From: an uncultured Burkholderiales bacterium
GTDB lineage: Bacteria > Vulcanimicrobiota > Xenobia > Xenobiales > JADMJV01
Assembly: GCA_964649085.1 (NCBI GenBank)
Contig: CAZYPN010000026.1
Location: 28,971-92,970, forward strand
DNA: 64,000 nt
Direction of reading: 5' to 3'
Shown here: positions 4,633 to 36,099 of the stretch, one piece after another
Position numbering within the stretch: position 1 is the first letter of the stretch
Layout: every line of letters starts with the position of its first letter
The notes under the pieces: model-generated
What the model saw: only the letters and a program-made list of their open reading frames with translations
What the model was told of the DNA's origin: nothing
Database searches by the model: none
Translations under genes and position numbers: made by a program

Positions 4633-6045
4633 TTAAAAGTCTGTGTTTCCCCCGCTCGGGTTCCCGATTTGATCGTGGGCAGTTCCCGCCGTGTAATAGA
4701 CCACGGGCTTCTCGGCCCAGGCGGCTTCGACGGCGTCGGACACGCGCCAACCCGCCACCGCTTCTGCCGGTGTGGCAAAAAAGGCCGACTCACCCTGGGC
4801 GGCACTTGCTAGCAGGCCGGAATAGGCTGCCTGGTTGGGAATCTGGGGGTCGAGGGGCAGGCTTACCGTTTTCTCGGCCGTGACCACCTCGATACCCGCC
4901 TTTCCATTGACGGTGAACTTCATCGTGGCCGGTTGATCGGCCCTTAACCCCAGGCGCTCGGCCAGAGCCGGTGGCAGCGCGCGCAGATGAACGTCCACGC
5001 CCGAGCGTTTTTGCTCGACGCCCTTGGCGTTGATCAGGTGAAAACGCACGCCTTCCCAACGCGGCAAGCCCACCTTCAAGTCGAAGGCCACCAGGGTTTC
5101 GGCCTCAGACGGCGGAGCTCCCTCGGGCGCTCCCTGGAGGGGGTCGTTGAAGCCGGAAAACTGGCCTCGAACCACGGTCTCTGGCACGATTTCCACGGCT
5201 TCAGCCGCTCGCTGCCGCTGCAATCGAAGTTGCTCACTGGTGATGTTGGTGGGCAGATCCATGGCCAGCGAGGACAGGATTTGCATCGCATGGTTTTGGG
5301 TCATGTCCTTGAGAATGCCGGTGTCGCGGAAGTAAGGACGGTCGTTGGACTTGATCGTCTCCAACAACTTGACTTCCACCCGTTCCACATACTGCGAGCG
5401 CAACGCTTCGTCTACTTCAGGGCGGGCTTTGAATTGCAGCATATGGGACATGCCCGGATAGCCCAGAAAGTGGTCGATCAGCAACACCTGTCCGGGCTCG
5501 AAGTCGCGTTCCACCACCTCGGCCAGTTCGCGGGCCTCGGTCGAGTTGGCCCCGAAGGGCTTCTCCAGCAGAATACGCCGAAAGGCCCCGTTCTCTGGGC
5601 TTTGCGACAGCCCGCTCGATTTCAGGTTGTCCAGCAGGGGCTTGTAGGCCTTGGGGGGCACGGCCGCCAGAAAGACGGCGTTCTCGCTGCCAACGTCGTG
5701 CTGGATCTGTTGGAAGTCCTCCGGACGAGTCAGATTGACCCCCAGCACCGAGGCCCCTTCCTCTTGCAATGACGTCAATGCCCGAAACTTCTCGAATCCT
5801 GCTTCACGGATGGGTTTCGAATCGGCATCGCCCTGGCGAAACCGCTCCAGGTAGGCCGCTCCCGACGAGGGCTTCGAGCCCATCATAATCAGCGCGTGCT
5901 GTTCGGGGTTCAGACGATCGGTTTCAGCCAGCTCCACCAGAGCATCGCGCACCGAGCGCTTGCTCACGAGGTCGCCGGTGGCTCCGAAAATGTAGAAGCG
6001 CGCCGAGGGTATGGGCCCCAGGCTGCTTCGCAACAGTTCCGTCAT
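4633..6045 (-). CDS. zwf: Glucose-6-phosphate dehydrogenase-like NAD(P)-dependent oxidoreductase (divergent Zwf family)
   Basis: N-terminal FYIFGATGDL dinucleotide-binding motif, LIDHFLGY (cf. RIDHYLGKE) and ILKDMTQNHAMQIL (cf. RDMVQNHLLQ); start at Met 50 places the GxxGDL motif at residue about 17 as in G6PDs; alternative start 6192. Confidence 0.7.
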   Translation of the reverse strand: MTELLRSSLGPIPSARFYIFGATGDLVSKRSVRDALVELAETDRLNPEQHALIMMGSKPSSGAAYLERFRQGDADSKPIREAGFEKFRALTSLQEEGASVLGVNLTRPEDFQQIQHDVGSENAVFLAAVPPKAYKPLLDNLKSSGLSQSPENGAFRRILLEKPFGANSTEARELAEVVERDFEPGQVLLIDHFLGYPGMSHMLQFKARPEVDEALRSQYVERVEVKLLETIKSNDRPYFRDTGILKDMTQNHAMQILSSLAMDLPTNITSEQLRLQRQRAAEAVEIVPETVVRGQFSGFNDPLQGAPEGAPPSEAETLVAFDLKVGLPRWEGVRFHLINAKGVEQKRSGVDVHLRALPPALAERLGLRADQPATMKFTVNGKAGIEVVTAEKTVSLPLDPQIPNQAAYSGLLASAAQGESAFFATPAEAVAGWRVSDAVEAAWAEKPVVYYTAGTAHDQIGNPSGGNTDF

Positions 6046-6296
6046 GTCTTCCACGGCGGACGGCTGCGGAGCTGAACTCAAGGTGACCTGATCGGTGGCC
6101 CCCAAGGTTTCAGCAGCACCGCCCTTGTCCACGCCCGTTGCCGACTGCCGGTAGATCCGGTGGGGCTGGGAAGGCGTTAGGGGGGACAGCATCTCCGATC
6201 ATTCAGCAGGGCGATGGCAAAGCCTCCAACAGGAGGGATGTCTTAGTATGGACGGTTCTGTCAGTCTGACTGTAATAGTGTTATGCTTGGCATTCG

Positions 6297-6743
6297 ATGA
6301 GGAGGTGTGGGGTGAAGTCCTTCATTCTTGCGTGGTTACTCTCGGCCAGCCTGTGGGCCCAGCCTTCGGGGCCCATCATTCGCCCATTGGGGGCCGATTT
6401 CTATCTGGTTCAATGTAATGCTTATCCGCTCAAGGTCGACGACCGGGTAGTGCTCACCCGTCAGGGTGTCGAGGTGGGGAAAGGCCAGGTCATGCGTCAA
6501 GAGGGTGGCTTTTGCAGCATCCGCCTGCTCGAGGGTCAGGCCCAGCGCTATGACCTGGTGTCGCTGCAGTCTCAGGGGGGCTCTGGCGACCGGGGGCCGG
6601 CGCTGAACCTGCATACGCCACCGGCTTCCAAGCCAGGCGCGGCGGCACGTCCCCGCCAGTCCCAGCAAGCCAGCTATTTCCATTCGCTCGACTTCAGTGG
6701 TCGTGTCTACCAATTGAATACCGGCCAGGTGCTCACACCGTGA
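6297..6743 (+). CDS. Small secreted hypothetical protein (signal peptide)
   Basis: ILAWLLSASLWAQP signal peptide; GAGGAGG overlapping the ATG, so the GTG at 6312 is the more likely start. Confidence 0.5.
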   Translation: MRRCGVKSFILAWLLSASLWAQPSGPIIRPLGADFYLVQCNAYPLKVDDRVVLTRQGVEVGKGQVMRQEGGFCSIRLLEGQAQRYDLVSLQSQGGSGDRGPALNLHTPPASKPGAAARPRQSQQASYFHSLDFSGRVYQLNTGQVLTP

Positions 6744-7111
6744 GGTGGCTGCGCAGCTTCTGGTTGCTGTGTGCGGTGGCCTGGGCTCAACCCTCACCCA
6801 GGCTACCCGAGGGAAACTGGGTGGTCAGCGAAACTTCAGGCAGCACGGTGCAGGGCAACTGGTCCTATCGCGCCGGGGCAGCCGTGATACAGGCCCGCTG
6901 GAATAACGGCACCCAGGCCCTACTTCGTCTCGATTCGTGGGATGGCCAGCGCATACAAGTCTCCCGGCTCGATGCTAGCGGGCCCACCACCGGTCTCAGG
7001 GCCGTGTATTCGGGGGTTTGTCAGGGAACGTTGATTCAGGGGCAGGTCCATTGGTACTGGCCGGGCGGCTGTCGTCAGGGAAAGTGGACGGTTCAGTTGC
7101 CCCAGGTTTGA
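6740..7111 (+). CDS. Small secreted hypothetical protein (signal peptide)
   Basis: GTG start overlapping the upstream stop; FWLLCAVAWAQP signal peptide; tandem with 6297..6743. Confidence 0.5.
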   Translation: MRWLRSFWLLCAVAWAQPSPRLPEGNWVVSETSGSTVQGNWSYRAGAAVIQARWNNGTQALLRLDSWDGQRIQVSRLDASGPTTGLRAVYSGVCQGTLIQGQVHWYWPGGCRQGKWTVQLPQV

Positions 7112-7129
7112 GCTTTTCAGGGTTTCATC

Positions 7130-7909
7130 ATGACTCCCGGCTATGCTGCCCCCATGTTATCGCCGCTCCGCTTCCAATCGCCCACACTCTCGCGCCCGCT
7201 GGCAAGAGCCAATCGGCAGTCCCCGCAGGATCTGTCGACGGCTCCCTCGGACCAGGTCTGCCTCAGTGCGGCCCCAACGCCCAGCCGCACCTCGATCGGA
7301 GTTCGCGCCGGTCAGGCACTGTTGATCGGGTGCAGCCTCGTGGGCGGGGTGGTGGGGTTGGCCTCGGCGGCCCAGGCCCAGCAGGCTCAGGTCCAGGTGC
7401 GTCGCGGAGTGCGCTACGATATGACCGAGCAGCAGCTGAGCGAGCGGGTGCGCAACTCGCTGACGGCCGACCAGATCGGCGAAGGACAGCCCCACTTCAC
7501 GGCCTGGGAGGTCGACTCCAATCAGTCGAGCAAGTGGTATCACAACCCGCGCACGTTGCAGGTGGACGAGCAGCACAGCGGACGCACCGTCACCGAGGGC
7601 GACCCCTTCCGCCAGTGCGCCCGGCAAAGTGCCGACGGCACCTGCCAGACTGCCAAGCCCAATCAGATTCGTTACAGCGTGCTGAGCTGCATCTACCAAA
7701 AGCAGGAAGACGGTCAGCTCTACCGGGTCACCCACAAGTCCTACCAGCACAACTACACCCATAACATGCAGCGCAACGTCTGCGGCGGCCACGAGCTGCG
7801 CTACGACGCCGGTGCCATGACCTTCATGCCTCACCAGGTCAATGCCGAGGGCGATCAGTTGTTCCTCAATCCCGCCAACATTCTTTCGATCGAAAAAGTG
7901 GGCGGCTAG
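7130..7909 (+). CDS. Hypothetical membrane-anchored protein
   Basis: Balanced composition with a TM-like segment LLIGCSLVGGVVGLASAAQA; the overlapping antisense ORF 7157..8023 is Gly/Ala/Leu-rich junk. Confidence 0.45.
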   Translation: MTPGYAAPMLSPLRFQSPTLSRPLARANRQSPQDLSTAPSDQVCLSAAPTPSRTSIGVRAGQALLIGCSLVGGVVGLASAAQAQQAQVQVRRGVRYDMTEQQLSERVRNSLTADQIGEGQPHFTAWEVDSNQSSKWYHNPRTLQVDEQHSGRTVTEGDPFRQCARQSADGTCQTAKPNQIRYSVLSCIYQKQEDGQLYRVTHKSYQHNYTHNMQRNVCGGHELRYDAGAMTFMPHQVNAEGDQLFLNPANILSIEKVGG

Positions 7910-7917
7910 ATAGTCGG

Positions 7918-8442
7918 CTACGCCGACTTCTTCAGCAGTTGCCCAGGAGGCCAAGGAATCACGCCTCCAAGCAGGTCCACCCAGACCACCACTGCCACCC
8001 AGTGAAAGACAACCAGCGGCCACAGCGACCCGAAGCGCAGGTAGTGCAGGCTGTTCAGCAGGGCCAGGGCCAGCGCCAGCGCCAGGAAGCGCGGGTTCTC
8101 AAAGGCTGCCCGTGCCTCTGGCCCGCCTACTCGGCCCAGCAGCGGGTGCCAGAGCACGAATAGCACGGCGCTCAGCGCCACCGCGCCCCAGGGGTTGGGC
8201 GAGCCGGGTGCAGGCAGCAGCAGCACGCGCCAAAAGGCCTCTTCCAGGCAACAGGGCACCAGCCACAGGGCGGCCCAGCGACGCCAGCAGGGGCGACGCG
8301 GAGCCCAATGCAAGAACCGCCCCCGCAGCTTCCAGGCCAGCCCGGCGTAGAACAAGAGTTGCACCAGCAGCCACCCCCAGGCTTCGACGGGGGGCAAGGC
8401 CAGCGACTGCCACAATCGGTCATTTCCCAATGGAGTCAGCAT
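7918..8442 (-). CDS. CPBP-family (CAAX protease / Abi) intramembrane metalloprotease
   Basis: Motif 1 EEAFWR (EExxxR), motif 2 FVLWH (FxxxH), motif 3 HYLRF...HW; multi-TM. Confidence 0.8.
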   Translation of the reverse strand: MLTPLGNDRLWQSLALPPVEAWGWLLVQLLFYAGLAWKLRGRFLHWAPRRPCWRRWAALWLVPCCLEEAFWRVLLLPAPGSPNPWGAVALSAVLFVLWHPLLGRVGGPEARAAFENPRFLALALALALLNSLHYLRFGSLWPLVVFHWVAVVVWVDLLGGVIPWPPGQLLKKSA

Positions 8443-9002
8443 TGGGGGATATGCGAAAACATCCAGGCGTCGTGGCGCTTGCCGTGCAGGGCCAAGCGGT
8501 TGCGCAGCAACCCTTCATACCATGCCCCCGACTTTTCGGCCGCCCGACGCGACGACTCGTTGCCCACCGCCACCACGATTTCCACCCGGCCCAGGCCCAG
8601 TTGCTCGAAGGCCAGCCTTGAGGCCGCCCGAATGCAGCCCACGGCGATCCCCTGGCCCCAGCGGCTGCGGCGCACCCAGTAGCCCAGGTTGGCAAAACCG
8701 TGCTCGCGCGACAACTGGTTCAGCCCGCAGCCGGCCACCAGGTCCCCGCTGCCCGGGTCGAAGACCGCTAGAGAATAGTCCTCGCCGCGCTCCCAGGCGG
8801 GCGGGCGCGAATGGGCATAGCTGATGCTCTCGTCCTGGCTATAGTCGGGGTGACACCAGGGCATCCATTCGCTGAAGCCAGCACCGGCCGACTCGCGGGC
8901 GGCTTCATAGAGAGCCCTCGCGTCCTCGGGTTGATAGGGGCGAAAGAGCAGCTCGACGCGTACTTTGTCGTCGGCCGGCAGCAGCAGTTCGAAAGCGATC
9001 AC
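8436..9002 (-). CDS. GNAT-family N-acetyltransferase (RimJ/RimL-like)
   Basis: Acetyl-CoA-binding region RRSRWGQGIAVGCIRAASRLAFEQLGLGRVEI (Q/RxxGxG/A motif A). Confidence 0.8.
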   Translation of the reverse strand: MIAFELLLPADDKVRVELLFRPYQPEDARALYEAARESAGAGFSEWMPWCHPDYSQDESISYAHSRPPAWERGEDYSLAVFDPGSGDLVAGCGLNQLSREHGFANLGYWVRRSRWGQGIAVGCIRAASRLAFEQLGLGRVEIVVAVGNESSRRAAEKSGAWYEGLLRNRLALHGKRHDAWMFSHIPQC

Positions 9003-9257: not shown

Positions 9258-9421
9258 GGTTTGCTCTCCTGGATGTTTTGTCTGTAGGGACCAGCTTACA
9301 CGGCAATCCTGAAAAAGCTCTCAAGGGCACACTCCAAGGGGGGGGCAAACCAGGCAGGATGCTCAAATTGTTTCCAGAATGTAACCAAAGTTACAGACAA
9401 ATGAACTGGGGGGTGGGCAAC

Positions 9422-11281
9422 ATGCGCCGCGGCTTCACCCTTTACGAAGTCCTCGTGTCCATGGCCATCTTGACCTCGGTCATGGTGTTGGCCCTGGTCA
9501 ACGGTCGAACAGCCGAACGGTCGAGCCAGTCTCAGGCCGTAGCCGAGTTGCTGGCTGGCGAGTTTCGTCAGGCCCATCAGCGGGCTCTGGCCGAACATCG
9601 TCCCGTGGCCGTCGTGGTACCTGGTCAGGGCAATTCCTGCCCCCACGCCAGTTCCATTTATCTCATGGCCGGAGAAGAGAAGCCTCGCCCTTCGCGCTCG
9701 GTAGACTTTTCCAAAGAATTTCCGCTGGCCATGGTCAGCGTGGCTCACTGGCCGCTCACCAGCGGCGTCACCACACTCGACCCACCCGCTGGCGTCACTG
9801 GCCTGGATGTGAGTGCCTGGGCCGGACCAGGCTTCAGCGATTATGCCTATGTCTACGACGCATCGGGTCGGCTGCACACCAATCTGTTGCCCAACTTCCA
9901 GGGGGCCTATCATCTGGTGGTCTGCACCGGCCTGGACTATGTGTCCTCAAATCCCACGGTGACCGGAACGGCTCCTCTCAATCATTTTGCCCTGTCCAAG
10001 GTGGCCCAGCCCTATACGGTGCGGCTCACACCTTCGGGAGGCGTCAGCGTGAGCAAGGGGCTGCTGAATGCCAGTCCGGCAGTGGCTCAGCTGGTTGGCA
10101 GTATGAACTCCAGCCCCCCGGCCAGCAAGGTGTTGGTAAGCAACAGTGCCAACCAGAATCCGGTCATCGCCTCGCTCGATTTCGCCCCGCGCCTTCCCGG
10201 CGCCGGCTCCAGCACGGCCTATGTCGACAAGGACGGCTTCCTGTCGTTGAAGGTCACCGCTCAGGATCCTGAAGGCGGGCCGCTGTATATTCGTTGGACG
10301 GCCAACGGTGGTAGCTTCTCCTATCAGGATCGGGTGAGAATGCAGTGGAACGAACAGGCTCAGGCCTGGACCTCCACCTGGGAGTGGCGCCCGCCCCAGG
10401 CTTTTGTGGCCGGACAGCAGTTTGCCCTCACCTGCCAGGTGGCCGACCCGCTAGGGGCGGTGGTCAGCCTGGCAGACCCGGCCCTACAAGGGGTTGAGCC
10501 CGTGGCCGGCGGCAAGATCGGCTACAACGACGCCGCCGGTGGCGCCAAGTTGGTGCTGCAGAACGGCACTCCTGTGGGTGGCTTCGGCGATGCCACCTAC
10601 ATGTTTTTGAACTTCAGTGCCGACGGCAAGCGTGCCGTATGGCGCACCGGTCCTGCCACCGTCACCTGCAATACCGATGGCACCTCACCCCACAGCATTC
10701 CGGGTTCGCACCAGAACCAATCGTGGTCGCCCGACGGCAGCAAGATCCTCTATTGGGATGTGAGCTTTCCCCTGCGGGTGTGTGTGATGAACGCCGACGG
10801 CACCAATAAGACTCCGCTGACCCCCAACAGTTCCAGTTACATGATTTATCAGGAGCCGCGCTGGTCGAACCGAGGCGACCGCATCCTGGTCTATCAAAAC
10901 GGAGCCGCCATGCTGGTCAACCCCGACGGCACGGCGTTGGAGCCGCTACAGGGCGTGCCCGCTCAGGCCTACGGCTTTGACTTTAGCCCCGACAGCACCC
11001 GTATGTGCTACTTTCGAACGGGCACTGGGGGAGGTCTGTGGGTGTGCGACCTGACCGACAACCCCGGCGACGGACTCAATCCCACGCTAAGCAATCACGT
11101 GCAGATATCGACCGACACCCTCTATACGGCCCCACGCTGGTCGCATCGCGGAGACGCCATCGCTTACCACGCGTATTCCAGTGGCTATCGACTCAAGCTG
11201 ATTCATCCTGACGGCAGCGGCGCCGTCAGTCTGGGGTATAATGCCACGGGCAACTACACCCCGCCCAGCTGGTGTCGATAG
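9422..11281 (+). CDS. Prepilin-type N-terminal cleavage/methylation domain protein (pseudopilin) fused to a TolB/PD40-like beta-propeller
   Basis: MRRG|FTLYEVLVSMAIL class III signal peptide with Glu at +5; C-terminal repeats SWSPDGSKILYW / PRWSNRGDRILVY / FDFSPDSTRMCYF / PRWSHRGDAIAYH; GGGGGTG-type SD upstream. Confidence 0.8.
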   Translation: MRRGFTLYEVLVSMAILTSVMVLALVNGRTAERSSQSQAVAELLAGEFRQAHQRALAEHRPVAVVVPGQGNSCPHASSIYLMAGEEKPRPSRSVDFSKEFPLAMVSVAHWPLTSGVTTLDPPAGVTGLDVSAWAGPGFSDYAYVYDASGRLHTNLLPNFQGAYHLVVCTGLDYVSSNPTVTGTAPLNHFALSKVAQPYTVRLTPSGGVSVSKGLLNASPAVAQLVGSMNSSPPASKVLVSNSANQNPVIASLDFAPRLPGAGSSTAYVDKDGFLSLKVTAQDPEGGPLYIRWTANGGSFSYQDRVRMQWNEQAQAWTSTWEWRPPQAFVAGQQFALTCQVADPLGAVVSLADPALQGVEPVAGGKIGYNDAAGGAKLVLQNGTPVGGFGDATYMFLNFSADGKRAVWRTGPATVTCNTDGTSPHSIPGSHQNQSWSPDGSKILYWDVSFPLRVCVMNADGTNKTPLTPNSSSYMIYQEPRWSNRGDRILVYQNGAAMLVNPDGTALEPLQGVPAQAYGFDFSPDSTRMCYFRTGTGGGLWVCDLTDNPGDGLNPTLSNHVQISTDTLYTAPRWSHRGDAIAYHAYSSGYRLKLIHPDGSGAVSLGYNATGNYTPPSWCR

Positions 11282-12068
11282 GTTGTCTGTCCGCGGTCGG
11301 GGTCTCAGCCTGGTCGAGACCCTCATCGCCTTCTTCTTGCTCAGCTGCGGCGTCTTGCTGATCACTCAGCTTTTCCTTTACTCGCTGCGCTACACTCGCC
11401 AGGTGGAGGCCCGCGCCCGAGCCCTGCTGGCGGGCGAACGCGCCTGGCAGCGCCTGCGCAACTGGGCGGCCGAGGTGAATGGTGGTCAGCTCAACTTCTT
11501 GGGCAACTGGGCCACCTATCAAGGGGTAACGGAAACCGACCCCGACGACGCCGAATTCCAGCTGCGCTACCAGGTGGCCGACCAGAACTTGATGTCGCCC
11601 TGTCACGAGCTTGAACGTCTCATTCCGGCCGACCAACAGGGACTGATGGCCCGCTCGGCCAAAAGGGTGTCCATTACGGTCAGCTGGCGTGGGGGCTCGC
11701 TTCAGTTGGCCGGGCTGGTGGAAGAGCCGCCGCGCCAATGGCGGGCCACCAATCCTCTGGTGGTGTCGGGCACCCCGCCCGATCCGGTCAACGCCTCCAA
11801 TCCGGCCAACTTTACGGCAACCGCCTTCGACAGCAACGATGCCGCCATCGAAGATCTTGAGTTTCGCTGGTACGTCGACGCCATGTCCACCTCGGGTACG
11901 GTCACGCCCTCACAGAACGGAAAGGCGGCCACTTTCCTCCCTCAAATCACTCTGTCGGACGGCAGCACCCAGCCCAGCCCTCCAGGCCAGTGCCGGGTGA
12001 AAGTTCGGGCCGTGTATCGCGGCCAGGAGCGCATCGCCCTTTCTACCGTGATGAACGTGGCGCCGTGA
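11241..12068 (+). CDS. Prepilin-type pseudopilin (minor pilin-like)
   Basis: RGRG|LSLVETLIAFFLL with Glu +5; alternative TTG start at 11283 directly after the upstream stop. Confidence 0.7.
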   Translation: MPRATTPRPAGVDRLSVRGRGLSLVETLIAFFLLSCGVLLITQLFLYSLRYTRQVEARARALLAGERAWQRLRNWAAEVNGGQLNFLGNWATYQGVTETDPDDAEFQLRYQVADQNLMSPCHELERLIPADQQGLMARSAKRVSITVSWRGGSLQLAGLVEEPPRQWRATNPLVVSGTPPDPVNASNPANFTATAFDSNDAAIEDLEFRWYVDAMSTSGTVTPSQNGKAATFLPQITLSDGSTQPSPPGQCRVKVRAVYRGQERIALSTVMNVAP

Positions 12069-12610
12069 AGACGCGAGCGCGTGGCATCACCCTGATCGAG
12101 GTCTTGCTCACCTGTCTGCTCTTCAGTGTAGCGCTGGGATTGCTGGCCGGATTTGTCGGCCGGGTGAGCGATGTGATGCGCTTTTCCAGCGGTAAGGACC
12201 GCACGGTTCAGGCGGCCCGTCTGGCCCTGGACCGCATGCAGGACGAACTCTCAGGTGCCATACAGCTCTTGGAGCCCGGATCCAGCCCCACCGACAAGCT
12301 GCAGTTCGTGCGCCTTGACCCTCGTGTGGCCGGTCGCCTGCCCAACCCACTTCCCAGCACGCTTCCCACCAGTTGGGACCCGGTCGACCCTGCCTTCCTG
12401 ACTCAGGTCACCTACGCCCTGGTCGACGACCACCTGGAGCGCACGGCGTTGCACAATGACGGCAGCACCCGAAGTGAAACCCTGCTCGACCAGGTTCAGG
12501 GCCTGCAAACCGAGCGCCTGACCCCAACCAGCGTGCGTCTGACTCTGCTGGTGTGGGACAGTCGCCGCACCACTCGCTGGATCGCCATCGGGGGGATTCG
12601 CCTTCGATGA
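12065..12610 (+). CDS. Prepilin-type pseudopilin (minor pilin-like)
   Basis: GTG start overlapping the upstream stop (GTGA); VKTRARG|ITLIEVLLTCLLF. Confidence 0.7.
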   Translation: MKTRARGITLIEVLLTCLLFSVALGLLAGFVGRVSDVMRFSSGKDRTVQAARLALDRMQDELSGAIQLLEPGSSPTDKLQFVRLDPRVAGRLPNPLPSTLPTSWDPVDPAFLTQVTYALVDDHLERTALHNDGSTRSETLLDQVQGLQTERLTPTSVRLTLLVWDSRRTTRWIAIGGIRLR

Positions 12611-13068
12611 TCCGCCGGGGCTCTTCCATCGTGGCCGTGTTGCTGGTGTTGTCGGCCATTCTGGTGTTGGGCCTGGGGCTGCTGGGCTCGCGGGTGTCGC
12701 AGGTGCGTGCCGCCCAGGACTCGCTGCAGGCCTCGCAGGCCCAGCTTCTGGCCGAAGCGGGTCTGGCCGACGCGCGCATGAAACTGGACAAACGGCTCAG
12801 CTTTCCTCCCAAGTTGGTAGACCAGGATGAGGTCATTTTCAGCTATACCGAAGACCTGCTCGACCCGGCCGGGCAGCGTGTGGGCAGCTATCAGGTGGTG
12901 ATTGACCGAACCTGGGAAAAGGACCCCTACCGCCTGATCCGTGTAACTTCCGAGGGCCTGGTGGGGCCTGTCGAATCACCCAGGACGCGGCGCAAGATCA
13001 GCGCCGAACTCGACTGCGGCGCCAGCCCCACCGAGTGGATCAACTGGATAGACGAAGGGGGGCTGTAA
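12607..13068 (+). CDS. GspK/PilX-like pseudopilin-family protein (no Glu +5)
   Basis: ATG overlapping the upstream stop (ATGA); MIRRGSSIVAVLLVLSAILVLGL N-terminus. Confidence 0.6.
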   Translation: MIRRGSSIVAVLLVLSAILVLGLGLLGSRVSQVRAAQDSLQASQAQLLAEAGLADARMKLDKRLSFPPKLVDQDEVIFSYTEDLLDPAGQRVGSYQVVIDRTWEKDPYRLIRVTSEGLVGPVESPRTRRKISAELDCGASPTEWINWIDEGGL

Positions 13069-13473
13069 CTACCGCTGAAGCGGCTGAATGCTCAGAACCA
13101 GACCGTCTTCGCTCTTCAAGATTTCTCGGTCTTGCTCGATTACTCGATAGACCTTGCGGCCTCGAAAGGCCGCTGGAACCTGAGAATCGTCGAGCAATTC
13201 CCCCTGCGGCGTCTGGCCGGCCCTGGCCGGCCCGTTGAGCTGAACCTGGGTGGTGCGGCGGCGGCTGGGAACGCCGGTAATGGCCCCGCCCGTCGGGGCC
13301 GCGGGTGCTGTGGCCGCGGGAGCCGCCGGGGCCGCCTGAGGTAGGCTGCTCTGGGGAGACTTCGCCGGGGTGGCGGACGTGGCCGAAGCAGCGGGTGTGC
13401 GGGTTGAGGTGGGGGAGGGCTGCGAACTCTGAGCACAGCCGGCCAATAAAAGAGCGAGCAAGAACAGCCGCAT
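13069..13473 (-). CDS. Putative lipoprotein (Pro/Ala/Ser/Thr-rich linker)
   Basis: MRLFLLALLLAGC lipobox signal; the longer track ORF to 13737 overlaps gspF antisense. Confidence 0.45.
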   Translation of the reverse strand: MRLFLLALLLAGCAQSSQPSPTSTRTPAASATSATPAKSPQSSLPQAAPAAPAATAPAAPTGGAITGVPSRRRTTQVQLNGPARAGQTPQGELLDDSQVPAAFRGRKVYRVIEQDREILKSEDGLVLSIQPLQR

Positions 13474-13538
13474 GTCGAGGTTTTCTAGCTCAGAGAGAGT
13501 TGGCCTCCCGAGGAGTGCCAGGGAAAGGAGGTGCTGAT

Positions 13539-14699
13539 GTGCGCGAACGATGGAATGCCTTGAAACGCGGTCTGACCGGCAAGAAGCAGCCAGCCGGTGG
13601 GTGGTTGCCCAGCGGACTGGCCGACCCCGCAATGCGCAGCCATCTGAGCACGCTTGCGGTGGCACCCGGCGAGGTGGCGGCCTTGACCCGCCAGCTGGCC
13701 ACCTTGCTCTCGGGCGGCGTGCCGCTGGTTCAGGCATTGGGCATTCTACGCCAACAGCCCGAGAACCCCGTGCTTGGGGACGTGGTGGCCGACGTCGGCG
13801 CCCAGGTGGGTTCGGGCCATCGCCTATCGGCGGCCCTGAGTCACTACCCCAGGGTCTTTGGCCAGCTGTTTGTCACCATGGTGGCGGTGGGTGAAAACTG
13901 TGGGCAGCTCGACCAGTCGCTGCGCAATCTGGCCGATTGGCTGGAGAAAGACGACGCCCTCAGGCGCAAGGTCAAGGCGGCCATGACCTATCCGCTGATG
14001 GTACTCGGCCTGGCTGTGTTGCTTGCGGTGACGATGTTTGTCACGGTATTGCCCGGCTTTATCACCATCTTCGAGGACCTGCAAACCCCCCTGCCGTTGA
14101 TCACTCAGGTGGTGGTGTGGATCACCAAAGCCTTGCGACACCCCCTGTTCTGGATCGCGGCCGTGGGCCTGGGTGCAGGCCTCAAGGCGGCCCTGCAAAA
14201 GGCCCAGGCCGACAGTCAGCGCAACGCACAACTCTACCGCTGGCTGCTCAACATTCCTGGCCTGGGGGGGCTGCTCTTTCACAGCAGCTGCGCCCGCTAC
14301 TGCGCCACCGTGGGGGTGCTGCTCAATGCCGGCATGGACCTGCGACGCAGTTTGACTTTGGCGGCTGCTGCCAGCGGCAGCCCACTGCTTGAGCAGGATG
14401 CGAAGCAGCTGGTCAATGCCGTCATCCACGGACACGCCGTCGATGACTATATGATGGCCCATCCACAGCTCTACTCTGGCACCATGACTCAGATGGCCGT
14501 AGCCGGCGAAGAGGCCTCGCGCCTGCCCGAGATGCTCACTCGAGCCTCGCGTTTCCACGAACTGGAGGTGGAAGCTCGCATCGAAGCCATCAGCGCGGCG
14601 CTGGAGCCGATTTTGCTCAGCGGGGTGGCGCTTGTGGTGGGCACGGTGCTGGTGGCGATTTTCATTCCCCTCTACGGCATTGTGGCCACCCTGGCTTGA
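13539..14699 (+). CDS. gspF: Type II secretion / type IV pilus platform protein GspF/PilC family
   Basis: Two T2SSF-type halves (ALTRQLATLLSGGVPLVQALGIL...; RYCATVGVLLNAGMDLRRSL...) and 3 TM; GTG start with AGGAGG 8 nt upstream. Confidence 0.85.
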   Translation: MRERWNALKRGLTGKKQPAGGWLPSGLADPAMRSHLSTLAVAPGEVAALTRQLATLLSGGVPLVQALGILRQQPENPVLGDVVADVGAQVGSGHRLSAALSHYPRVFGQLFVTMVAVGENCGQLDQSLRNLADWLEKDDALRRKVKAAMTYPLMVLGLAVLLAVTMFVTVLPGFITIFEDLQTPLPLITQVVVWITKALRHPLFWIAAVGLGAGLKAALQKAQADSQRNAQLYRWLLNIPGLGGLLFHSSCARYCATVGVLLNAGMDLRRSLTLAAAASGSPLLEQDAKQLVNAVIHGHAVDDYMMAHPQLYSGTMTQMAVAGEEASRLPEMLTRASRFHELEVEARIEAISAALEPILLSGVALVVGTVLVAIFIPLYGIVATLA

Positions 14700-14744
14700 T
14701 CGCTCTTTCAGAAGGGTTTCAGCCCGAGGACATAAGGTTGAGGC

Positions 14745-15404
14745 GTGAACATCTCGGCTCACTGTCTGCCCCAACGACCCGACCGCATCGCACGCAAGGC
14801 TCTCGAGGCTCTGGCCCTGGACCCGCAGCAGCATCGGCTGCTGGAGGAGAATCTGGCCAGCTACACTTCCCACCTCCACGATGACTACCAGCAGAGTCTG
14901 GAAACCCTGGAGGGTGGAGACCTGCTGGCCCGGCTGCAGAACGGTTGGGCTCACGGCGAGCATCGTTGGACCGACAAGCTGCGCCGAGATCTCCGCGACC
15001 CTTATTCCGACCAGCAGGTGGGAGAGCGATTTGAAGCCCTCAAAGCTCGTTTCATCGAGGAGGCCCGCAACTATCCCGGCCAGCTCTTCATCGCCGGCAG
15101 CCTGAGCAAGGGGCGTTTCGGGGCCCATTCCGATCTGGACGTGCTGGCCACGGCCTCGCCCGGCTCAATGCCTGCTTCCTCGTGGCAAACGGGCAGCCCG
15201 CAGTTTTTGCTCGATTCCTTTCCGGGCGCCGTGGCTGTGGGCAGCGATGGACAGGACCTGCTCAAGCTGTGGCGCGAGGGCCTGGGCCGCAAGGGCCTGG
15301 AACTTCACGATGACTGGAAAGTGGCGCGCCACACTTACGTTCAGCGCCAGCCCGAACCCATCCCAAAAAGTGGCATGATGTGGAGCTTTGCCGACTTACC
15401 CTGA
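14745..15404 (+). CDS. Nucleotidyltransferase-fold domain protein
   Basis: Minimal NTase motif IAGSLSKGRFGAHSDLDVL (GS-x9-DxD); the antisense ORF 13824..15128 is junk. Confidence 0.5.
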   Translation: MNISAHCLPQRPDRIARKALEALALDPQQHRLLEENLASYTSHLHDDYQQSLETLEGGDLLARLQNGWAHGEHRWTDKLRRDLRDPYSDQQVGERFEALKARFIEEARNYPGQLFIAGSLSKGRFGAHSDLDVLATASPGSMPASSWQTGSPQFLLDSFPGAVAVGSDGQDLLKLWREGLGRKGLELHDDWKVARHTYVQRQPEPIPKSGMMWSFADLP

Positions 15405-15435
15405 GAGGCATCCGGCGAATTTCTGGGCCAGACCA

Positions 15436-16992
15436 CTAAACTTTTGTCTTCCGCCAGTCCTGGTAGGCAAAGAAGCAGTCGAGTCCCATAGGCACAATGG
15501 CCATGCGACAGGTCCAGGCCGGCAGGTCGGCTTCGGGCACCCAGGCGGACCATTCAATATGGTCGGGGTGAAATTCCATCGGGCCCTTCCATTCCAGGCG
15601 AAAGATATGGATCCAGGCCCGTGATCTCGCCCCCTGGTGAAAGTGGCTGCAGACGAACTCGGGGTTGGCCCCAACAATGCCCACCTCGGTCTGCAATACC
15701 CGACGGGCGGCCTCTTCATAGCTCTCGCCACTTTCGACCACGCCGCCCACAAAGACGTCGTGCATGCCCGGAAACAGGTCTTTGGTCGAGGTTCGCCGAT
15801 GCACGAGAACCTCGCCCTGGTCGTTGTAAATCAAGATTTTGACGGCCCGATGCATCAGGTTCTGCTCGCGCATGGCGCTGCGGGCCACGTGGTCCACCAC
15901 TCGATTCTCGCTGTCGACAACTTCCACGGTTTGCTGGCTGACGTCGATGCGTTGATGCGCTTTGGGTGCCTCCTGCTCAGCGGGGTCTGACGGCAGGTTG
16001 ACCTCGCGCAAGAATTCGGCATCGTTCTCGGGCACCGAAGGGTTGATGAACATCCCTGTGCCAAGTTCAAAGCCTGCACTTTTCTGCAATCGGGGCACGA
16101 TGGTGATATACCAATGAAATACACGTCCGCCCAGAATTTCAGCGTGCGACGAGCGCACCACCAGGTTATAGGGTGGGTCGCCCAGGCCATGATAGAGCCG
16201 GGCCAACAACTGTCGCAGCAGAACCGCCAGCTCTTCCAGTTCGGCATCGGTGGTCAGGGCATAGCTGCAACTGTGGCGACGCGGCAGAATCCAAATGGAG
16301 AACGGCGAGAAAGCGGCGTAAGGAACAAAAGCCACAAACTCTTTCGTTTCGCCTAGGATACGGGTGCGCTGACGCAGTTCCATCTCCATTTCATCGCAAA
16401 ATACACAGCGTCCGTGCTGATGATAGTAATGGTTGGCCACTTGCTGTCGGTCCAGCACCTGTCGGGGTGTCACTGGCAGAGCCACCACCTGAGAGTGCGG
16501 ATGTTCCAAGGAGCAACCGGCGGCCTGCCCGTGATTCTTGAAGATCACCACGTGCTCGGTTTCGGGCTGCAACCAGAAGGTACGATAGCGCTGGCGCCAG
16601 GCCTTCAGTACGAGGCTCAGGTGGCTGGGCACCATCAGGGCCAGCGTGGTGTTATGCAAGGGAGACTCGGCCACCACTTCGTGATGGCCAACCCCCTGCA
16701 GCCACCGGGCCAGTTCCTCGCCCCGCAACTCGGGGCGAGCCCCGGGGCTGACCACCGGAAAACGGTTGGGAAAACTGCGCACCAACCAGCCCGAAGTTTC
16801 ATCGCTGAAGCACAGCGTTTCTCCCGGAGTGCGGGAGTCGTGCCCCGGACAAAACGGGCACTGGCCCTTCCAGGTAGGTCGCTCATGCGTCCACTCGCCG
16901 ACCTCGCGGTGAAAGTCCTCGGGCCTGCGTGCCCTTTCGGGAGCAAAGACGACCCACTCTCCAGTGGCCACACTCAGGCGCAGTTCAGACAT
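15436..16992 (-). CDS. GalT-type (HIT superfamily branch) nucleotidyltransferase/phosphorylase fused to a C-terminal Nudix hydrolase
   Basis: Zn motif CPFCPG, active-site HPHSQ (GalT HPHGQ), then Nudix box GGVVESGESYEEAARRVLQTEVG. Confidence 0.8.
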   Translation of the reverse strand: MSELRLSVATGEWVVFAPERARRPEDFHREVGEWTHERPTWKGQCPFCPGHDSRTPGETLCFSDETSGWLVRSFPNRFPVVSPGARPELRGEELARWLQGVGHHEVVAESPLHNTTLALMVPSHLSLVLKAWRQRYRTFWLQPETEHVVIFKNHGQAAGCSLEHPHSQVVALPVTPRQVLDRQQVANHYYHQHGRCVFCDEMEMELRQRTRILGETKEFVAFVPYAAFSPFSIWILPRRHSCSYALTTDAELEELAVLLRQLLARLYHGLGDPPYNLVVRSSHAEILGGRVFHWYITIVPRLQKSAGFELGTGMFINPSVPENDAEFLREVNLPSDPAEQEAPKAHQRIDVSQQTVEVVDSENRVVDHVARSAMREQNLMHRAVKILIYNDQGEVLVHRRTSTKDLFPGMHDVFVGGVVESGESYEEAARRVLQTEVGIVGANPEFVCSHFHQGARSRAWIHIFRLEWKGPMEFHPDHIEWSAWVPEADLPAWTCRMAIVPMGLDCFFAYQDWRKTKV

Positions 16993-17095
16993 CCCCTGGT
17001 TTTCCCGCTATGGGCGGCCGAAGCCTGGCTGGACACCAGCGCTCAGGTCAACGATTCGGGCAGGGGTTTCCCCTTGCCATCTGTAATCCTGGGCC

Positions 17096-17872
17096 GTGCG
17101 CTATTGGTACCTGGTGCTGCTGGTCCTGCTGGCTCTGCCGGTGGCCTCACAAGGCCCCGACGACCTTAACGTATTGCGTTCCGCCTGCCAGTTTTTCGCC
17201 GGCTCTCCGCTCACCGCCGACGAGTGGGCCCGCATCGAAGCCGATGCCCGCAAGGATTTCGCCACTCAACCCGAGCAGTCCAGGGCCCAGCTGCAGGAGC
17301 TTCGCCAGCTGGGTTCCACGCTCTCCCAGATCACCGAGCCCGGGGCCCTGATCGAGGTGCGTCAGGCAGGGCTTTACTCGTTTTACCAGCTGCGCCAGTC
17401 GGGTCAGCACGACCTCAGTGCAGAAATTGTGCTGCAGCGTGCCCGTCCGTTGGCGGTCGACCCGGCCCATCAGGTGCTGCTGCTCGAAGCCGACCTCGAC
17501 GGGGTCATGGCCTATCTCAGTCTCCTGCGTCAAAGCCAGGGCGGGGCCCCCTGGTCTGCGCACGAGGCTCAGCAGTTCCGTAGCCAGACCGTCCAGAATT
17601 TCGCCCGACTGCCCGATGCTTCCAAAGCTTTCTTGCTGGGGGGGCAAATCTACTGGAGCGTGATCTCGGCCCAGATGCAGCGCCTTGGCCAGCAACGCCA
17701 GGCCGAGGTGCAGCAACGGCTGGCCCAACAGCAGCAGGTGCCGCTCTCGATGGATGCCTACCAGGCCCTCAGCAACCTCAGCCGCAGCCAGCACCTCACC
17801 ACCATGAACATTCTGGAGAACATGGGCGGCAGCGGCGACTACTGGGAAATGGTCGAGCGTCCCTCGTGGTGA
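17096..17872 (+). CDS. Secreted hypothetical protein (Gln-rich)
   Basis: Signal peptide YLVLLVLLALPVASQ; GTG start; antisense ORF 17147..17929 rejected on composition. Confidence 0.5.
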   Translation: MRYWYLVLLVLLALPVASQGPDDLNVLRSACQFFAGSPLTADEWARIEADARKDFATQPEQSRAQLQELRQLGSTLSQITEPGALIEVRQAGLYSFYQLRQSGQHDLSAEIVLQRARPLAVDPAHQVLLLEADLDGVMAYLSLLRQSQGGAPWSAHEAQQFRSQTVQNFARLPDASKAFLLGGQIYWSVISAQMQRLGQQRQAEVQQRLAQQQQVPLSMDAYQALSNLSRSQHLTTMNILENMGGSGDYWEMVERPSW

Positions 17873-17923
17873 GCCTGGAATAGGCTGCGCTCGAAGGCGA
17901 CTCTGGGGGGCGGAGGTCAGGAC

Positions 17924-19750
17924 ATGCAACGAACCTTAGGTTGGCTTCTCTCGCTGTGTATCACAGCCATGGCACAACCCATCCCCTACGCCAGTCAGCG
18001 TCCCGGTGGGGCTCTCAGCGACCCCCTGGAACAGCCACGCGACCTTACCGGGCGCTCGGTGAAAACCCCCCGGGTCCGCGCCATTCACGGCCGTGAATTG
18101 CCCGGGAGCAGCGGTTGGCTCATGGAGCACGACCCCTGGCTGGCCTACCAGATGGGGCGCGACCTCGGGCTACGCGAGTTCAGCCGGGCCGACGGCGCCT
18201 TTGGCGACGCCGGTCGCCTGGGGGGCAAAGTGCTCGACGATCAGGCCACGCCTATGATGAGCCGCGATCACGTCAACAGTTGCGTGGCCTGCCACAACGT
18301 CCCCTGGCGCGACATGGGGGCGGGCATCACCATCCAGAAAAACGCCGCCACCGGCCGTAACACGCCCCACGGCTTTGGCGGCGGTATCGTGGAAATGATC
18401 GGCCAGGAGATTCGCTCCCAGCTTATGGCCCAGGCCGATCGCAACGGTAATGGCTGGATCGAGCTCAGCGAGGCCAGCGGCCCGGCCCGGGTCCAGCCGG
18501 TATCGGGCGAGTTCCTCGACTACGGCTTTTTCGACGATCGCAACGGCGACGGCCGCCCCGATCTGAATCGAATCGTTTTTGTGTGCTACCTCGACGCCCA
18601 GGGGCGGCGTATCCCCTGGGCCCGCAGCCTGAACGATGCGGGAGTGGCCGGATACAACCTCGAGGTTCAGGTTTTTGGCCACGGTCAGCGCGACCGCCTC
18701 GGCCACGGGGGGCTCAGCGCCACCTTGCGGGCGGTCAGTTCCAACGCCTGGGACATGCACTCGGGGCTGCAGGCCCACGACCCCACCGCCTCGCGCGAAA
18801 GCCAGGCCGGACTGACCGGCTTCAGCCTGGCGGGCTGCTGGCAGTTCTTCACCGGTTTCACGCGCGATGCCGGCACCCGCAAAACTCCCAGCGGCATCAG
18901 CCTTGACGATCCCGATCGCGACGGAGTGGTGGAAGAAATTTCCCAGGGCGATCTCGACCTGCTCGAGTTCAGTCTGCTCAATCACCCGGCCCCGGCCGAA
19001 AAGGTCGACGCCCGATTTCAACGGGGGCAGAGCCATTTCCAGGCCATTGGCTGCACCGACTGCCATCGCAGCAGTTGGTCAGTGCGCCAGGACCGCCGCT
19101 TTTTCGAGCTAAAAACCAGCTACGTGCAGGGCCGGCTTCAAGGTCGCCTGCAGCGGCTGCACGGCGGCCCGGCCCGCTTCGAAGGTCTCTACAGCGATTT
19201 CCGTCACCACGATCTCGGCGAGGCCTTCTACGAAGTGCAATACGACGGTAGCCGCAACCGCAGCTTCCGCACCAGCCCGCTCTGGGGCGTGGGCAGCACG
19301 GCTCCTTATGGTCACGATGGGGCCAGCCTCAGCCTGGAAGAAGTCATTGTGCGCCACGGAGGCGAGGCGCTGGCCTCGCGCCAGCGCTTTGAACAGCTGG
19401 CCCCCGAGCAGCAGGACGAACTGGTGCACTTCCTGCGCGGGTTGACCCTCTACAGCAGCGAAACCCTGCCCTGTGACGTGAACGGCGACGGACACATCTC
19501 TCAGCACTTCGAAGTGGCCGGACAGGATACCGGCACCGAGTGCTTCAATCCCGAATGGCTTTTCGCCACGCCCGGGCGTATCGAAGGCATGGTCAGCGAC
19601 GGCGAGGGCGGGCGCATGCTCAGCAAGGCGCTGACCAACCTGCGCCAGGCCTACCGACTCGATTTACCGGCCCTGCGCGACCGCGACCACGATGGATTTG
19701 CCGACATCCTGGAACTACAACGATATCTGAGTGCACGGAGGAAACCATGA
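17924..19750 (+). CDS. Di-haem cytochrome c peroxidase-like protein (DUF1111 / MauG-CCP-like)
   Basis: Two CxxCH haem motifs (CVACH, CTDCH), PLWGVGSTAPYGHDG motif, signal peptide, C-terminal DVNGDGHIS calcium-binding-like loop. Confidence 0.75.
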   Translation: MQRTLGWLLSLCITAMAQPIPYASQRPGGALSDPLEQPRDLTGRSVKTPRVRAIHGRELPGSSGWLMEHDPWLAYQMGRDLGLREFSRADGAFGDAGRLGGKVLDDQATPMMSRDHVNSCVACHNVPWRDMGAGITIQKNAATGRNTPHGFGGGIVEMIGQEIRSQLMAQADRNGNGWIELSEASGPARVQPVSGEFLDYGFFDDRNGDGRPDLNRIVFVCYLDAQGRRIPWARSLNDAGVAGYNLEVQVFGHGQRDRLGHGGLSATLRAVSSNAWDMHSGLQAHDPTASRESQAGLTGFSLAGCWQFFTGFTRDAGTRKTPSGISLDDPDRDGVVEEISQGDLDLLEFSLLNHPAPAEKVDARFQRGQSHFQAIGCTDCHRSSWSVRQDRRFFELKTSYVQGRLQGRLQRLHGGPARFEGLYSDFRHHDLGEAFYEVQYDGSRNRSFRTSPLWGVGSTAPYGHDGASLSLEEVIVRHGGEALASRQRFEQLAPEQQDELVHFLRGLTLYSSETLPCDVNGDGHISQHFEVAGQDTGTECFNPEWLFATPGRIEGMVSDGEGGRMLSKALTNLRQAYRLDLPALRDRDHDGFADILELQRYLSARRKP

Positions 19751-20880
19751 AACTCACCACCGCAGCTCTGAGCCTGGCGCTCAGCGGCGCCGCCACCGCG
19801 GCCTGCTGCTACTTCGCCGCCATCAACAAAGACGTCACCCAGCCCGGGCAGCGCGCCTTTATTAGCTGGGATGAGCAACTGCAGCTGGAAACGTTCACCG
19901 TCCAGCCCCAGTTCCAGGGCAACGCCGAAGAATTCGGCATGGTCATCCCCACCCCGTCCCAGCCCAAACTGCAAGAGATGCCGCGCGACTTTTTCCGCGC
20001 TCTGGCGGTGTTCACCATTCTCGAACCGATGGACGTCAGCAAGTTCAAGCAAATGCGTCGTTCTATGCCTTCGTCCTACAGCGAAGGTGTTCGTCAGACC
20101 AAAAGCAGTCGTCCTCCCGTGCGGGTGCTTGAGCGTGGGGTTGTGGGCAACCTCGACTACAAGATTCTCGAGGCCGACAAGGCCGACGCTCTCTTTCGCT
20201 GGCTCAAAGACAACAAGTATCACTACGGCGGCGACGAGTCGACCCTCAAGTTCTACATCCAGCAGCGCTGGAACTTCACCGTCATGAAGATCGACCCGCG
20301 CCAGATGAAGAAAGGGCCCGACGGCAAGTTCCTCGGCGACATCACGCCCACCCGCTTTACATTCAAGTCTAAAAAGCCCATCTACCCCTTGCGCATCACC
20401 CAGATCAGCGTCAAAGACCAGACTGACGTCTTGCTGTACGTGATGTCGCGCAAGAAAATGGACCTGGACGGCAACTGGTCCTATCAGGCCAACTTCTTTT
20501 CCATGTGGACCCAGGCCATGAGTTGGGCCGTGCCCGAGAAGCTCACGGCCGAGGAGAAACGTTGGAAGTCCATCCTCGAGAAAAAGCCCCTCCAGGGCAG
20601 CCCCCAGGGGGCGCAACTCGAATGGGCCGGCAAGCTCACGCGTGACCGTCTCGCCGTGCTTACGGGCGATCGCGCCTACAACCGCGAGGCACCCCCTGAA
20701 GAAATAAAGAAACTCAAAGTGCTGAGCGGGCACCTCAAGCAGGATTGGTATCTCACCAAGTTTCGCAAATCGTTCCAGAAGGCCGAGATGACCCACGATA
20801 TCGGGCTGGTCGAGGCTCGCTATCAGGGCCAGGCTGACGACCTGGAATACGTCAGCATCCTCCCCACCTCGCCGCCTTAA
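19747..20880 (+). CDS. Secreted hypothetical protein, translationally coupled to the di-haem peroxidase gene
   Basis: ATGA start/stop overlap, GGAGG 5 nt upstream, signal peptide MKLTTAALSLALSGAATAA. Confidence 0.6.
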   Translation: MKLTTAALSLALSGAATAACCYFAAINKDVTQPGQRAFISWDEQLQLETFTVQPQFQGNAEEFGMVIPTPSQPKLQEMPRDFFRALAVFTILEPMDVSKFKQMRRSMPSSYSEGVRQTKSSRPPVRVLERGVVGNLDYKILEADKADALFRWLKDNKYHYGGDESTLKFYIQQRWNFTVMKIDPRQMKKGPDGKFLGDITPTRFTFKSKKPIYPLRITQISVKDQTDVLLYVMSRKKMDLDGNWSYQANFFSMWTQAMSWAVPEKLTAEEKRWKSILEKKPLQGSPQGAQLEWAGKLTRDRLAVLTGDRAYNREAPPEEIKKLKVLSGHLKQDWYLTKFRKSFQKAEMTHDIGLVEARYQGQADDLEYVSILPTSPP

Positions 20881-25721: not shown

Positions 25722-25752
25722 GAGCTCGACCCATCCGGGTCGGGCTCTTTTC
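25722..25752 (+). terminator. Putative rho-independent terminator (11-bp stem with one mismatch, 4-nt loop, TTTT)
   Basis: gagctcgaccc-atcc-gggtcgggctc followed by ttttc, immediately after the LysM-P60 stop. Confidence 0.45.
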
Positions 25753-30024: not shown

Positions 30025-30090
30025 GTTCCAACCCCCTTTGGGGGTAGCTACGCCTTTCACGGCTTGTCTCCTACGGGTATAATCAACCCC

Positions 30091-31804: not shown

Positions 31805-31844
31805 GGGGGCAGGGGAAAGTCCTTTCGTCACTAAGCCAGCCTTG

Positions 31845-36081: not shown

Positions 36082-36099
36082 ATTCTCAGGAGGTACCCG

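Follow-up and report, generated by a model that had tools for sequence, protein, structure and literature searches.

Class-I galactose-1-phosphate uridylyltransferases (GalTs) and the plant protein At5g18200 are obligate dimers, and their active sites lie between the subunits (bioRxiv 10.64898/2026.09.13.751320). At5g18200 has been reported to be an ADP-glucose phosphorylase and not a GalT (PMC6329318, citing McCoy et al. 2006). In the Nudix superfamily, NUDT9 has REFGEE at the core of its Nudix box and is inactivated by the substitution RILGEE; the NUDT9-H domain of human TRPM2, which has RILRQE, binds ADP-ribose and is enzymatically inactive (PMC6461439). We have analyzed a gene in which a GalT-like half is fused to a Nudix-fold domain. 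It lies at 15436..16992 on the minus strand of a 64,000-nucleotide stretch of contig CAZYPN010000026.1 (the window), and is an uninterrupted open reading frame (ORF) of 518 amino acids (aa) plus a stop codon. The motifs of the GalT half are intact and both halves are under purifying selection, and the Nudix box is degenerate, a feature that is confined to the fused copies. We consider the chance slightly better than even that the protein is a phosphorylase or transferase of a nucleoside diphosphate (NDP)-hexose, probably ADP-glucose, carrying a pseudo-Nudix domain that binds a ligand.

A GalT-like half and a Nudix-fold domain in one reading frame

The N-terminal half (aa 1-333; 15994..16992, minus strand, as for all features of the gene) has the class-I GalT fold. 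It scores above the cut-offs of Pfam GalP_UDP_transf (PF01087; aa 3-176, E = 2e-18, 67.7 bits against 22.1) and GalP_UDP_tr_C (PF02744; aa 186-265, E = 7e-11, 42.6 bits against 29.2), and of TIGR00209 (galT_1; 125.5 bits against 102.1). With both half-domain profiles, the HXHXQ motif and the predicted zinc-site residues, it belongs to class-I GalT, branch III of the HIT superfamily (IPR001937). A linker of 19 residues (aa 334-352; 15937..15993) leads into a YfcD-type Nudix-fold domain of 166 residues (aa 353-518; 15439..15936), which matches Pfam NUDIX (PF00293; aa 381-490, E = 7.5e-18, 65.3 bits against 21.1). A sequence-only reading of the window had proposed such a covalent fusion, together with the profile searches by which to check it; with all three Pfam families above their gathering scores and the fusion present in about 11 protein clusters, the proposal holds.

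In the AlphaFold2 (AF2) model both domains are confidently predicted (mean predicted local distance difference test score (pLDDT) 91.2, predicted template-modelling score 0.72) and the linker is less so, with pLDDT of about 75-77. The C-terminal half of the model superimposes on the structure of E. coli YfcD (2FKB) with TMt 0.90-0.92 and a root-mean-square deviation of 1.5-1.8 Å. The same structure is the best-matching Nudix structure by sequence (3.5e-24), and the best Nudix model is that of YfcD (NF011922; 104.1 bits, below the equivalog cut-off of 152).

A homologue search of 5.8 billion proteins returned ten full-length fused relatives (P0001-P0010), of 498-526 aa and 51-92% identity, that align with the window protein from end to end, and a partial one (P0012). 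The fusion thus amounts to about 11 protein clusters, set against thousands of GalT-like proteins of about 335 aa with a single domain. These counts are lower bounds. A word-indexed search with the Nudix half alone as query gave 11 matches and missed the fused orthologues, and an exhaustive search of representatives recovered only P0010 of the fused group, the others probably not being cluster representatives. The public annotation of one fused protein (P0008) is merely 'galactose-1-phosphate uridylyltransferase', and no description of a GalT-Nudix fusion was found in the searched literature. As a domain architecture the fusion is new, with the added feature of a pseudo-Nudix domain; both parts come from well-known superfamilies, and it is not a new kind of system.

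The ratio of nonsynonymous to synonymous substitution (dN/dS) was calculated by the Nei-Gojobori method from a comparison with the orthologue of 92% identity, for which dS is about 0.8. Values of 0.032 for the GalT half and 0.091 for the Nudix half show that both are under purifying selection. The linker is fast-evolving, with a ratio of 0.27 and poorly conserved alignment columns. From its value of 0.09 the Nudix domain is therefore being maintained and is not decaying.

Two glutamates of the Nudix box are lost in every fused protein

The Nudix box occupies aa 417-439 (15676..15744) and reads GVVESGESYEEAARRVLQTEVGI. The sequence-only reading had quoted this string correctly, but had taken it to be canonical. 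Compared with the box consensus GX5EX7REUXEEXGU it is degenerate, and this is seen equally in alignments to YfcD, to DR0079 and to standalone relatives. The core that should read REUxEE is RVLQTE (R431-E436; 15685-15702), with the glutamate of RE replaced by Val432 and the first glutamate of EE by Thr435, so that two of the three are gone. Glu423, Arg431 and Glu436 are kept. The aligned boxes are ARRVLQTEVGI in the window protein, ARREAEEELGI in YfcD and FRREAREEL in DR0079. The three REUxEE glutamates expected of an active Nudix hydrolase are not all present, and the domain is therefore not to be filed as a Nudix hydrolase despite its fold.

The same double loss is found in 11 of 11 fused copies. 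Their other cores are RVLRTE, RVLKVE, RILATE, RRLAVE, RVLATE, RVLANE, RVLQSE, RTLASE, RKLGRE and RKLGHD; the first glutamate is thus replaced by Val, Ile, Arg, Thr or Lys, and the second by Thr, Val, Asn, Ser, Arg or His. We compared these with a census of 197 domains of the subfamily, made up of the best 150 representatives from an exhaustive search of 1.84 billion proteins together with the fused and standalone sets. All three glutamates are present in 168 of the 197, and no non-fused domain in the census has the double loss. Apart from it just one deviation recurs, a single E-to-G substitution in one of the copies of tandem-Nudix proteins. Among the standalone proteins, the closest relatives (P0121-P0126), with 41-49% identity, have RRE.EEELG without exception, and the box is also canonical in the standalone copies of further Vulcanimicrobiota and Xenobia genomes. 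Because the closest standalone relatives keep it, the alignments indicate that the loss is specific and took place around the time of the fusion.

Other residues that are conserved in the subfamily remain in the fused copies: R371, H381, R382, H398, R400, K404, D405, E423, Y425, R431 and E436. Putative ligand contacts kept, two box glutamates lost and continuing purifying selection make up the pattern expected of a binding-competent pseudoenzyme. As judged from the residues of the box, the Nudix half is probably hydrolytically dead.

In general the YfcD-type Nudix domain is found fused to partners of many kinds. Pfam matches in the representative search (P0132-P0279) join it to GDPD, 6PGDH-like NAD-binding dehydrogenases, GHMP kinase, APH-type kinase, HAD, CoaE and N-formylglutamate amidohydrolase. 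It also often occurs as a tandem double or triple, with RG..EE in one copy.

The GalT half lies on the side of the plant ADP-glucose phosphorylase

The catalytic and metal-binding motifs of the GalT family are intact in the N-terminal half. The CPFCPG motif (aa 45-50; 16843..16860) supplies Cys45 and Cys48 of the first zinc site; it is invariant in 15 sequences and aligns with the zinc ligands of At5g18200, of the GalT from Pyrobaculum aerophilum (PaGalT) and of that from E. coli (EcGalT). The predicted site is completed by His104 (16681-16683) and His164. HPHSQ (aa 164-168; 16489..16503), a modified form of the HIT motif HXHXQ, is invariant in the 15 relatives and aligns with HSHSQ in At5g18200 and HPHGQ in EcGalT. 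Both motifs had been picked out by the sequence-only reading. From the roles described for the residues of the HIT motif (bioRxiv 10.64898/2026.09.13.751320), His166 is predicted to be the nucleophile that accepts the nucleotidyl group, His164 a zinc ligand, and Gln168 a phosphate-stabilizing residue.

A second metal site is predicted at Cys196 and Cys199 of CVFC (16396..16407), together with His240 (16273-16275) and His293 (16114-16116). All four residues are invariant in the alignment, are common to At5g18200 and PaGalT, and are not found in EcGalT. The loop GFELGTGMFIN (16042..16074) is nearly all invariant among the 15 relatives. Its counterparts are GFEIGTGCYIN in At5g18200, KFMVGYEMLAE in EcGalT and GAELGASLFTL in PaGalT, so that GFE[LI]GTG is common to the plant enzyme only and is found in neither GalT. 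The EcGalT segment is presumably the hexose contact made from the partner subunit. On these motifs we think it very probable that the N-terminal half is an active GalT-type transferase.

At5g18200 is the closest solved structure by sequence (1Z84; 2e-63, 218 bits, 35% identity), ahead of PaGalT (6K5Z; 3e-32, 115 bits, 33% identity) and EcGalT (1HXP; 2e-25, 93 bits, 27% identity). It is also first by E-value in Foldseek (1ZWJ/2H39, TMt 0.82-0.85), where by TM-score it is not set apart from PaGalT (0.84-0.86). In a simple neighbor-joining (NJ) tree with Kimura distances, as distinct from a maximum-likelihood one, 97 of 100 bootstraps place the prokaryotic clade of the query together with At5g18200 and leave PaGalT and EcGalT outside. 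The protein is closer to At5g18200 than to proven uridylyltransferases, and it resembles the plant enzyme in the residues of the second Cys2His2 site and in the GFE[IL]GTG loop. The placement of this half, which the sequence-only reading had left between GalT, ADP-glucose phosphorylase and Ap4A phosphorylase, thus comes out on the side of ADP-glucose phosphorylase. The E. coli-type GalT equivalog is not matched at its cut-off (NF008724; 140.6 bits against 448). Ap4A phosphorylase of the Apa1-Apa2 type is rejected, since PF19327 reaches 17.5 bits against a cut-off of 23.1 and covers the HxHxQ strand only (aa 147-177).

An NDP-hexose phosphorylase or nucleotidyltransferase is, from these comparisons, more likely than a GalT of the Leloir pathway. 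ADP-glucose as the specific substrate is a narrower claim, and we would place it slightly short of an even chance. The single-domain prokaryotic proteins of about 335 aa are all annotated as galactose-1-phosphate uridylyltransferase, yet they are sister to the plant ADP-glucose phosphorylase. The fusion draws attention to an annotation that is probably incorrect, or at least not complete.

A possible mechanism and its alternatives

The mechanism that we propose would begin with an attack by His166 on the alpha-phosphate of an NDP-hexose, with ADP-glucose the leading candidate. Hexose-1-phosphate would be released and a covalent intermediate of the histidine with nucleoside monophosphate (NMP) would remain. 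The NMP could then be passed to phosphate, giving an NDP, or to another phosphorylated acceptor. The role of the two metal sites, of Cys2His2 type, would be to stabilize the fold. The Nudix domain, as a pseudo-hydrolase, would bind but not cleave an NDP-X ligand, which may be the substrate, the product or some metabolite related to them, and might serve the transferase as a regulatory, substrate-capturing or oligomerization module. In one form of this, the C-terminal domain would be a pseudo-Nudix sensor, the bacterial counterpart in mechanism of NUDT9-H of TRPM2; it would bind NDP-X without hydrolysis and switch a HIT-family NDP-sugar phosphorylase allosterically. We advance this tentatively, by analogy, and well below even probability; its ligand might for example be ADP-glucose, ADP-ribose or a nucleotide alarm signal.

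Several points weigh against reading the protein as an NDP-hexose phosphorylase or transferase with a pseudo-Nudix domain. For the GalT half, ADP-glucose is extrapolated from a plant enzyme with only 35% identity, and we found no characterized member of the prokaryotic clade of about 335 aa in the searched literature. PaGalT, 33% identical and deposited as a uridylyltransferase, has the PNR[FY]P motif in common with the query. For the Nudix half, some Nudix-fold enzymes work with an incomplete box or with a catalytic base outside it (PMC6461439), and the domain may accordingly have residual or altered Nudix chemistry. No ligand is assignable to the domain, and no established substrate was found for YfcD either. 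Lastly, the seven orthologous contexts examined have no conserved neighbors and so give no hint of a pathway.

The alternative that survives best is a truly bifunctional enzyme, in which the GalT half would phosphorolyze or transfer an NDP-sugar or Ap4A and the Nudix half would hydrolyze the substrate or the product. ADP-glucose might for example go to AMP and glucose-1-phosphate, or the NDP product be hydrolyzed, with both sites turning over. The purifying selection on both domains would suit it well, as would the survival of Glu423, Arg431, Glu436 and many family-conserved residues. Fusions of YfcD-type Nudix domains elsewhere to kinases, HAD, GDPD and CoaE suggest a place in small-molecule metabolism, and the Nudix enzymes with a base outside the box (PMC6461439) provide a route by which the domain could still act. 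Against this, the first and second REUxEE glutamates are replaced in every fused copy, the equivalent E-to-I change abolishes the activity of NUDT9 (PMC6461439), and the canonical boxes of the closest standalone relatives make the loss specific to the fusion. Nor does the genome provide independent evidence for a two-step pathway. In a Rosetta-stone test the nearest unfused GalT-like gene had no adjacent Nudix gene, and a GalT-like gene was found within 3 kb of none of 72 standalone Nudix loci, so that coupling of the two activities receives no support. The sequence-only reading had favored a two-step degradation or editing enzyme with two active centers on the strength of a canonical box, and had named the lack of the box glutamates on alignment as the finding that would count against it. 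That lack is what was found. We now regard two working sites as unlikely.

If the Nudix domain is catalytic at all, its chemistry could instead be a different one, as in the type-1 isopentenyl diphosphate (IPP) isomerases of the same sub-clade. H381, H398, H412 and D405 would then take the place of the box glutamates and act on the product of the GalT half. The type-1 isomerases (IDI-1) are indeed the next-closest solved relatives after YfcD and DR0079, His381 aligns with the conserved IDI histidine of the HxA motif, and the Nudix domain is strongly conserved. Nothing positive points to any specific alternative reaction, and we judge this improbable. The identity of a type-1 IPP isomerase as such is rejected. 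The CGH positions of IDI (Ala67 in the mutant chain of 1OW2, and His69) are Gly and Val within the GGV of the query (FVGGVVE against SVAGHPQ), and the IDI models lie far below their cut-offs (NF002995 48 against 127; TIGR02150 33 against 106).

A purely structural domain, adding to oligomerization or stability without a specific small-molecule ligand, is about as improbable. It would sit naturally with the obligate dimers of class-I GalTs and At5g18200 (bioRxiv 10.64898/2026.09.13.751320), and the tandem Nudix arrays with one degenerate copy that are common in the subfamily show that the fold is used as a structural partner. The residues that are retained, however, are the basic and histidine ones that are conserved across the catalytic family (R371, H381, R382, H398, R400, K404 and R431), a pattern hard to explain without ligand binding. 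That two neighboring genes were merged by an error of sequencing or assembly, or that the gene is a decaying pseudogene, of which the truncated relic that is all the SZAS-1 lineage possesses of the fusion (L032/P0127, below) might be a sign, has a negligible probability and is excluded: the same continuous frame is present in 11 or more clusters whose assemblies (JGI, ENA, NCBI and Logan) are independent, dN/dS is 0.03-0.09, the AF2 model is confident for both domains, and the orthologues leave no room for an overlooked stop or frameshift between the halves, which the sequence-only reading had allowed for.

Distribution of the fusion

The named sources of the fusion are metagenome-assembled genomes of Vulcanimicrobiota (= Eremiobacterota) and the contig labelled Xenobiales_JADMJV01. 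We scanned 185,579 species-representative genomes with motifs specific to the fused Nudix half, and obtained two fused loci only. That in JADMJV01 (L014) is a full-length fusion; the other, in a Vulcanimicrobiota bin (L015), is truncated by the end of the contig but spans the junction. The third locus of the scan is a relic (L032, 2875-3309, encoding P0127) from contig 88 of SZAS-1 EREM-KAN-1. Here residues 308-429 are joined directly to residues 492-516, with deletion of the Nudix-box helix and the beta core, and there is no GalT half upstream; its public label is 'NUDIX domain-containing protein'. The same SZAS-1 genome also has a canonical standalone Nudix protein (L027). With only two fused loci and one relic in the scan, the fusion is rare and restricted to one lineage.

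The NJ tree of the GalT halves does not follow the fusion exactly. The divergent fused proteins P0009 and P0010 fall outside the main fused clade (P0001-P0008), and the unfused P0011, 69% identical, is sister to that clade. The Nudix halves of all the fused proteins, P0009 and P0010 included, nevertheless have the degenerate box and an LDC motif in common. This implies either that P0011 has lost its Nudix domain secondarily or that the tree is poorly resolved.

Genomic context

The fusion gene appears to be monocistronic. Of its two neighbors, a 219-aa ORF is convergent with it and a 258-aa ORF divergent. About 25 larger ORFs of the window were scanned, and none is a glycogen or ADP-glucose gene; a G6PD homologue lies about 9 kb from the fusion gene.

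The 219-aa ORF (14745..15404, plus strand) has GS-x10-DxD, a minimal Pol-beta nucleotidyltransferase motif (GSLSKGRFGAHSDLD). The sequence-only reading had described it as a convergent gene of nucleotidyltransferase fold. Its orientation and the motif are as described, but the fold is matched only below threshold (PF01909; E = 0.047, 14.5 bits against a cut-off of 21), and there is no NCBIfam match. The ORF is conserved (85% aa identity) next to T2SS-F in L001-L003. The link with the fusion gene at which that reading had hinted is rejected, since the ORF accompanies the fusion only in the closest relative.

Some 7.7 kb of the window (9350-17030) are inverted relative to the locus of the 92%-identical relative (L001, 9963-18029), with flanks (4670-8996 and 17120-20582) that are collinear with it. 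The inverted block contains a cluster resembling those for pili or type II secretion, running from a 667-aa protein with an N-methyl motif to T2SS-F, and then the 219-aa ORF and the fusion gene. Terminal inverted repeats were sought at the breakpoints and none was convincing. A 200-aa ORF at the breakpoint in L001 has no blastn counterpart in the window.

On the other side of the fusion gene, the 258-aa ORF (17096-17872, plus strand) has no family match. It lies upstream of a di-haem oxidoreductase/MauG-like protein (17924-19750, plus strand; PF06537 DHOR, matching in the C-terminal part only). The pair is conserved in L001-L003 (90% aa identity for the 258-aa ORF), where a DUF2330 protein follows. 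Further away on the minus strand are two similar modules (25751-30258 and 47996-53531), each with an ORF of about 1075 aa and then a FecR-domain protein (424 aa and 500 aa respectively), which look like a duplicated system. The 64-kb window, of about 63% GC, has no tRNA genes and no Rfam families at the gathering threshold. Many of its large ORFs have no Pfam match (for example 31347-33584, 35143-37071 and 43380-45314), consistent with a poorly characterized phylum.

Comparison with known systems

The closest described relative of the GalT half is At5g18200, with which it shares the class-I GalT fold, HxHSQ, the two Cys/His metal sites and the GFE[IL]GTG..IN loop. The plant enzyme is a single domain of 351 aa without Nudix, whereas the query has 518 aa with a Nudix-fold domain, and a strand of the nucleotide pocket reads PNRF in the query and ENLY in At5g18200. 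With EcGalT and PaGalT the common features are the double half-barrel of the HIT branch, the HPH(G/S)Q nucleophile motif and the first zinc site. Both of these lie outside the clade formed by the query and At5g18200, and EcGalT lacks the second Cys2His2 site.

The Nudix half has the same sub-fold as YfcD (2FKB) and the standalone Nudix proteins (P0121-P0126; L016-L034), and the HR, VHRRT.TKD and GGVV..GE motifs in common with them. It differs at the box, where standalone YfcD-type proteins have RE.xEE and the fused copies R[VIRTK]L..E, and in having PMGLDC where the standalone proteins have PDGL. Two glutamates lost exactly in the fused lineage provide a clean natural experiment on the evolution of pseudoenzymes. 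What the pseudo-Nudix domain binds could be a lead to the physiological substrate both of the YfcD-type Nudix family and of the GalT-like clade, each an orphan activity. To our knowledge there is no earlier case of a catalytically dead Nudix domain that regulates a metabolic enzyme in cis. If the fused domain is indeed a sensor it would be the first known, and would present a naturally replicated change from Nudix to pseudoenzyme on fusion, with canonical standalone copies persisting in the same phylum.

Two known systems come closest to such a sensor. NrtR is a non-catalytic ADP-ribose sensor. Regulators of the NrtR type (3GZ8, which is among the weak Foldseek matches of the model) likewise have a bacterial Nudix fold that senses a ligand and is fused to another module; there the other module is a DNA-binding winged helix, and the Nudix domain comes from another subfamily. 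In NUDT9-H of TRPM2 a Nudix domain is again fused to a larger protein, and the first and second box glutamates are replaced and the last is kept, the changes being E to I and E to Q in TRPM2 and, for example, to V and T in the fused copies. TRPM2 is eukaryotic, its domain is of the NUDT9/ADPRase subfamily and not of the YfcD type, and it is an ion channel and not a metabolic enzyme. The analogy is thus one of mechanism only, with no homology beyond the superfamily.

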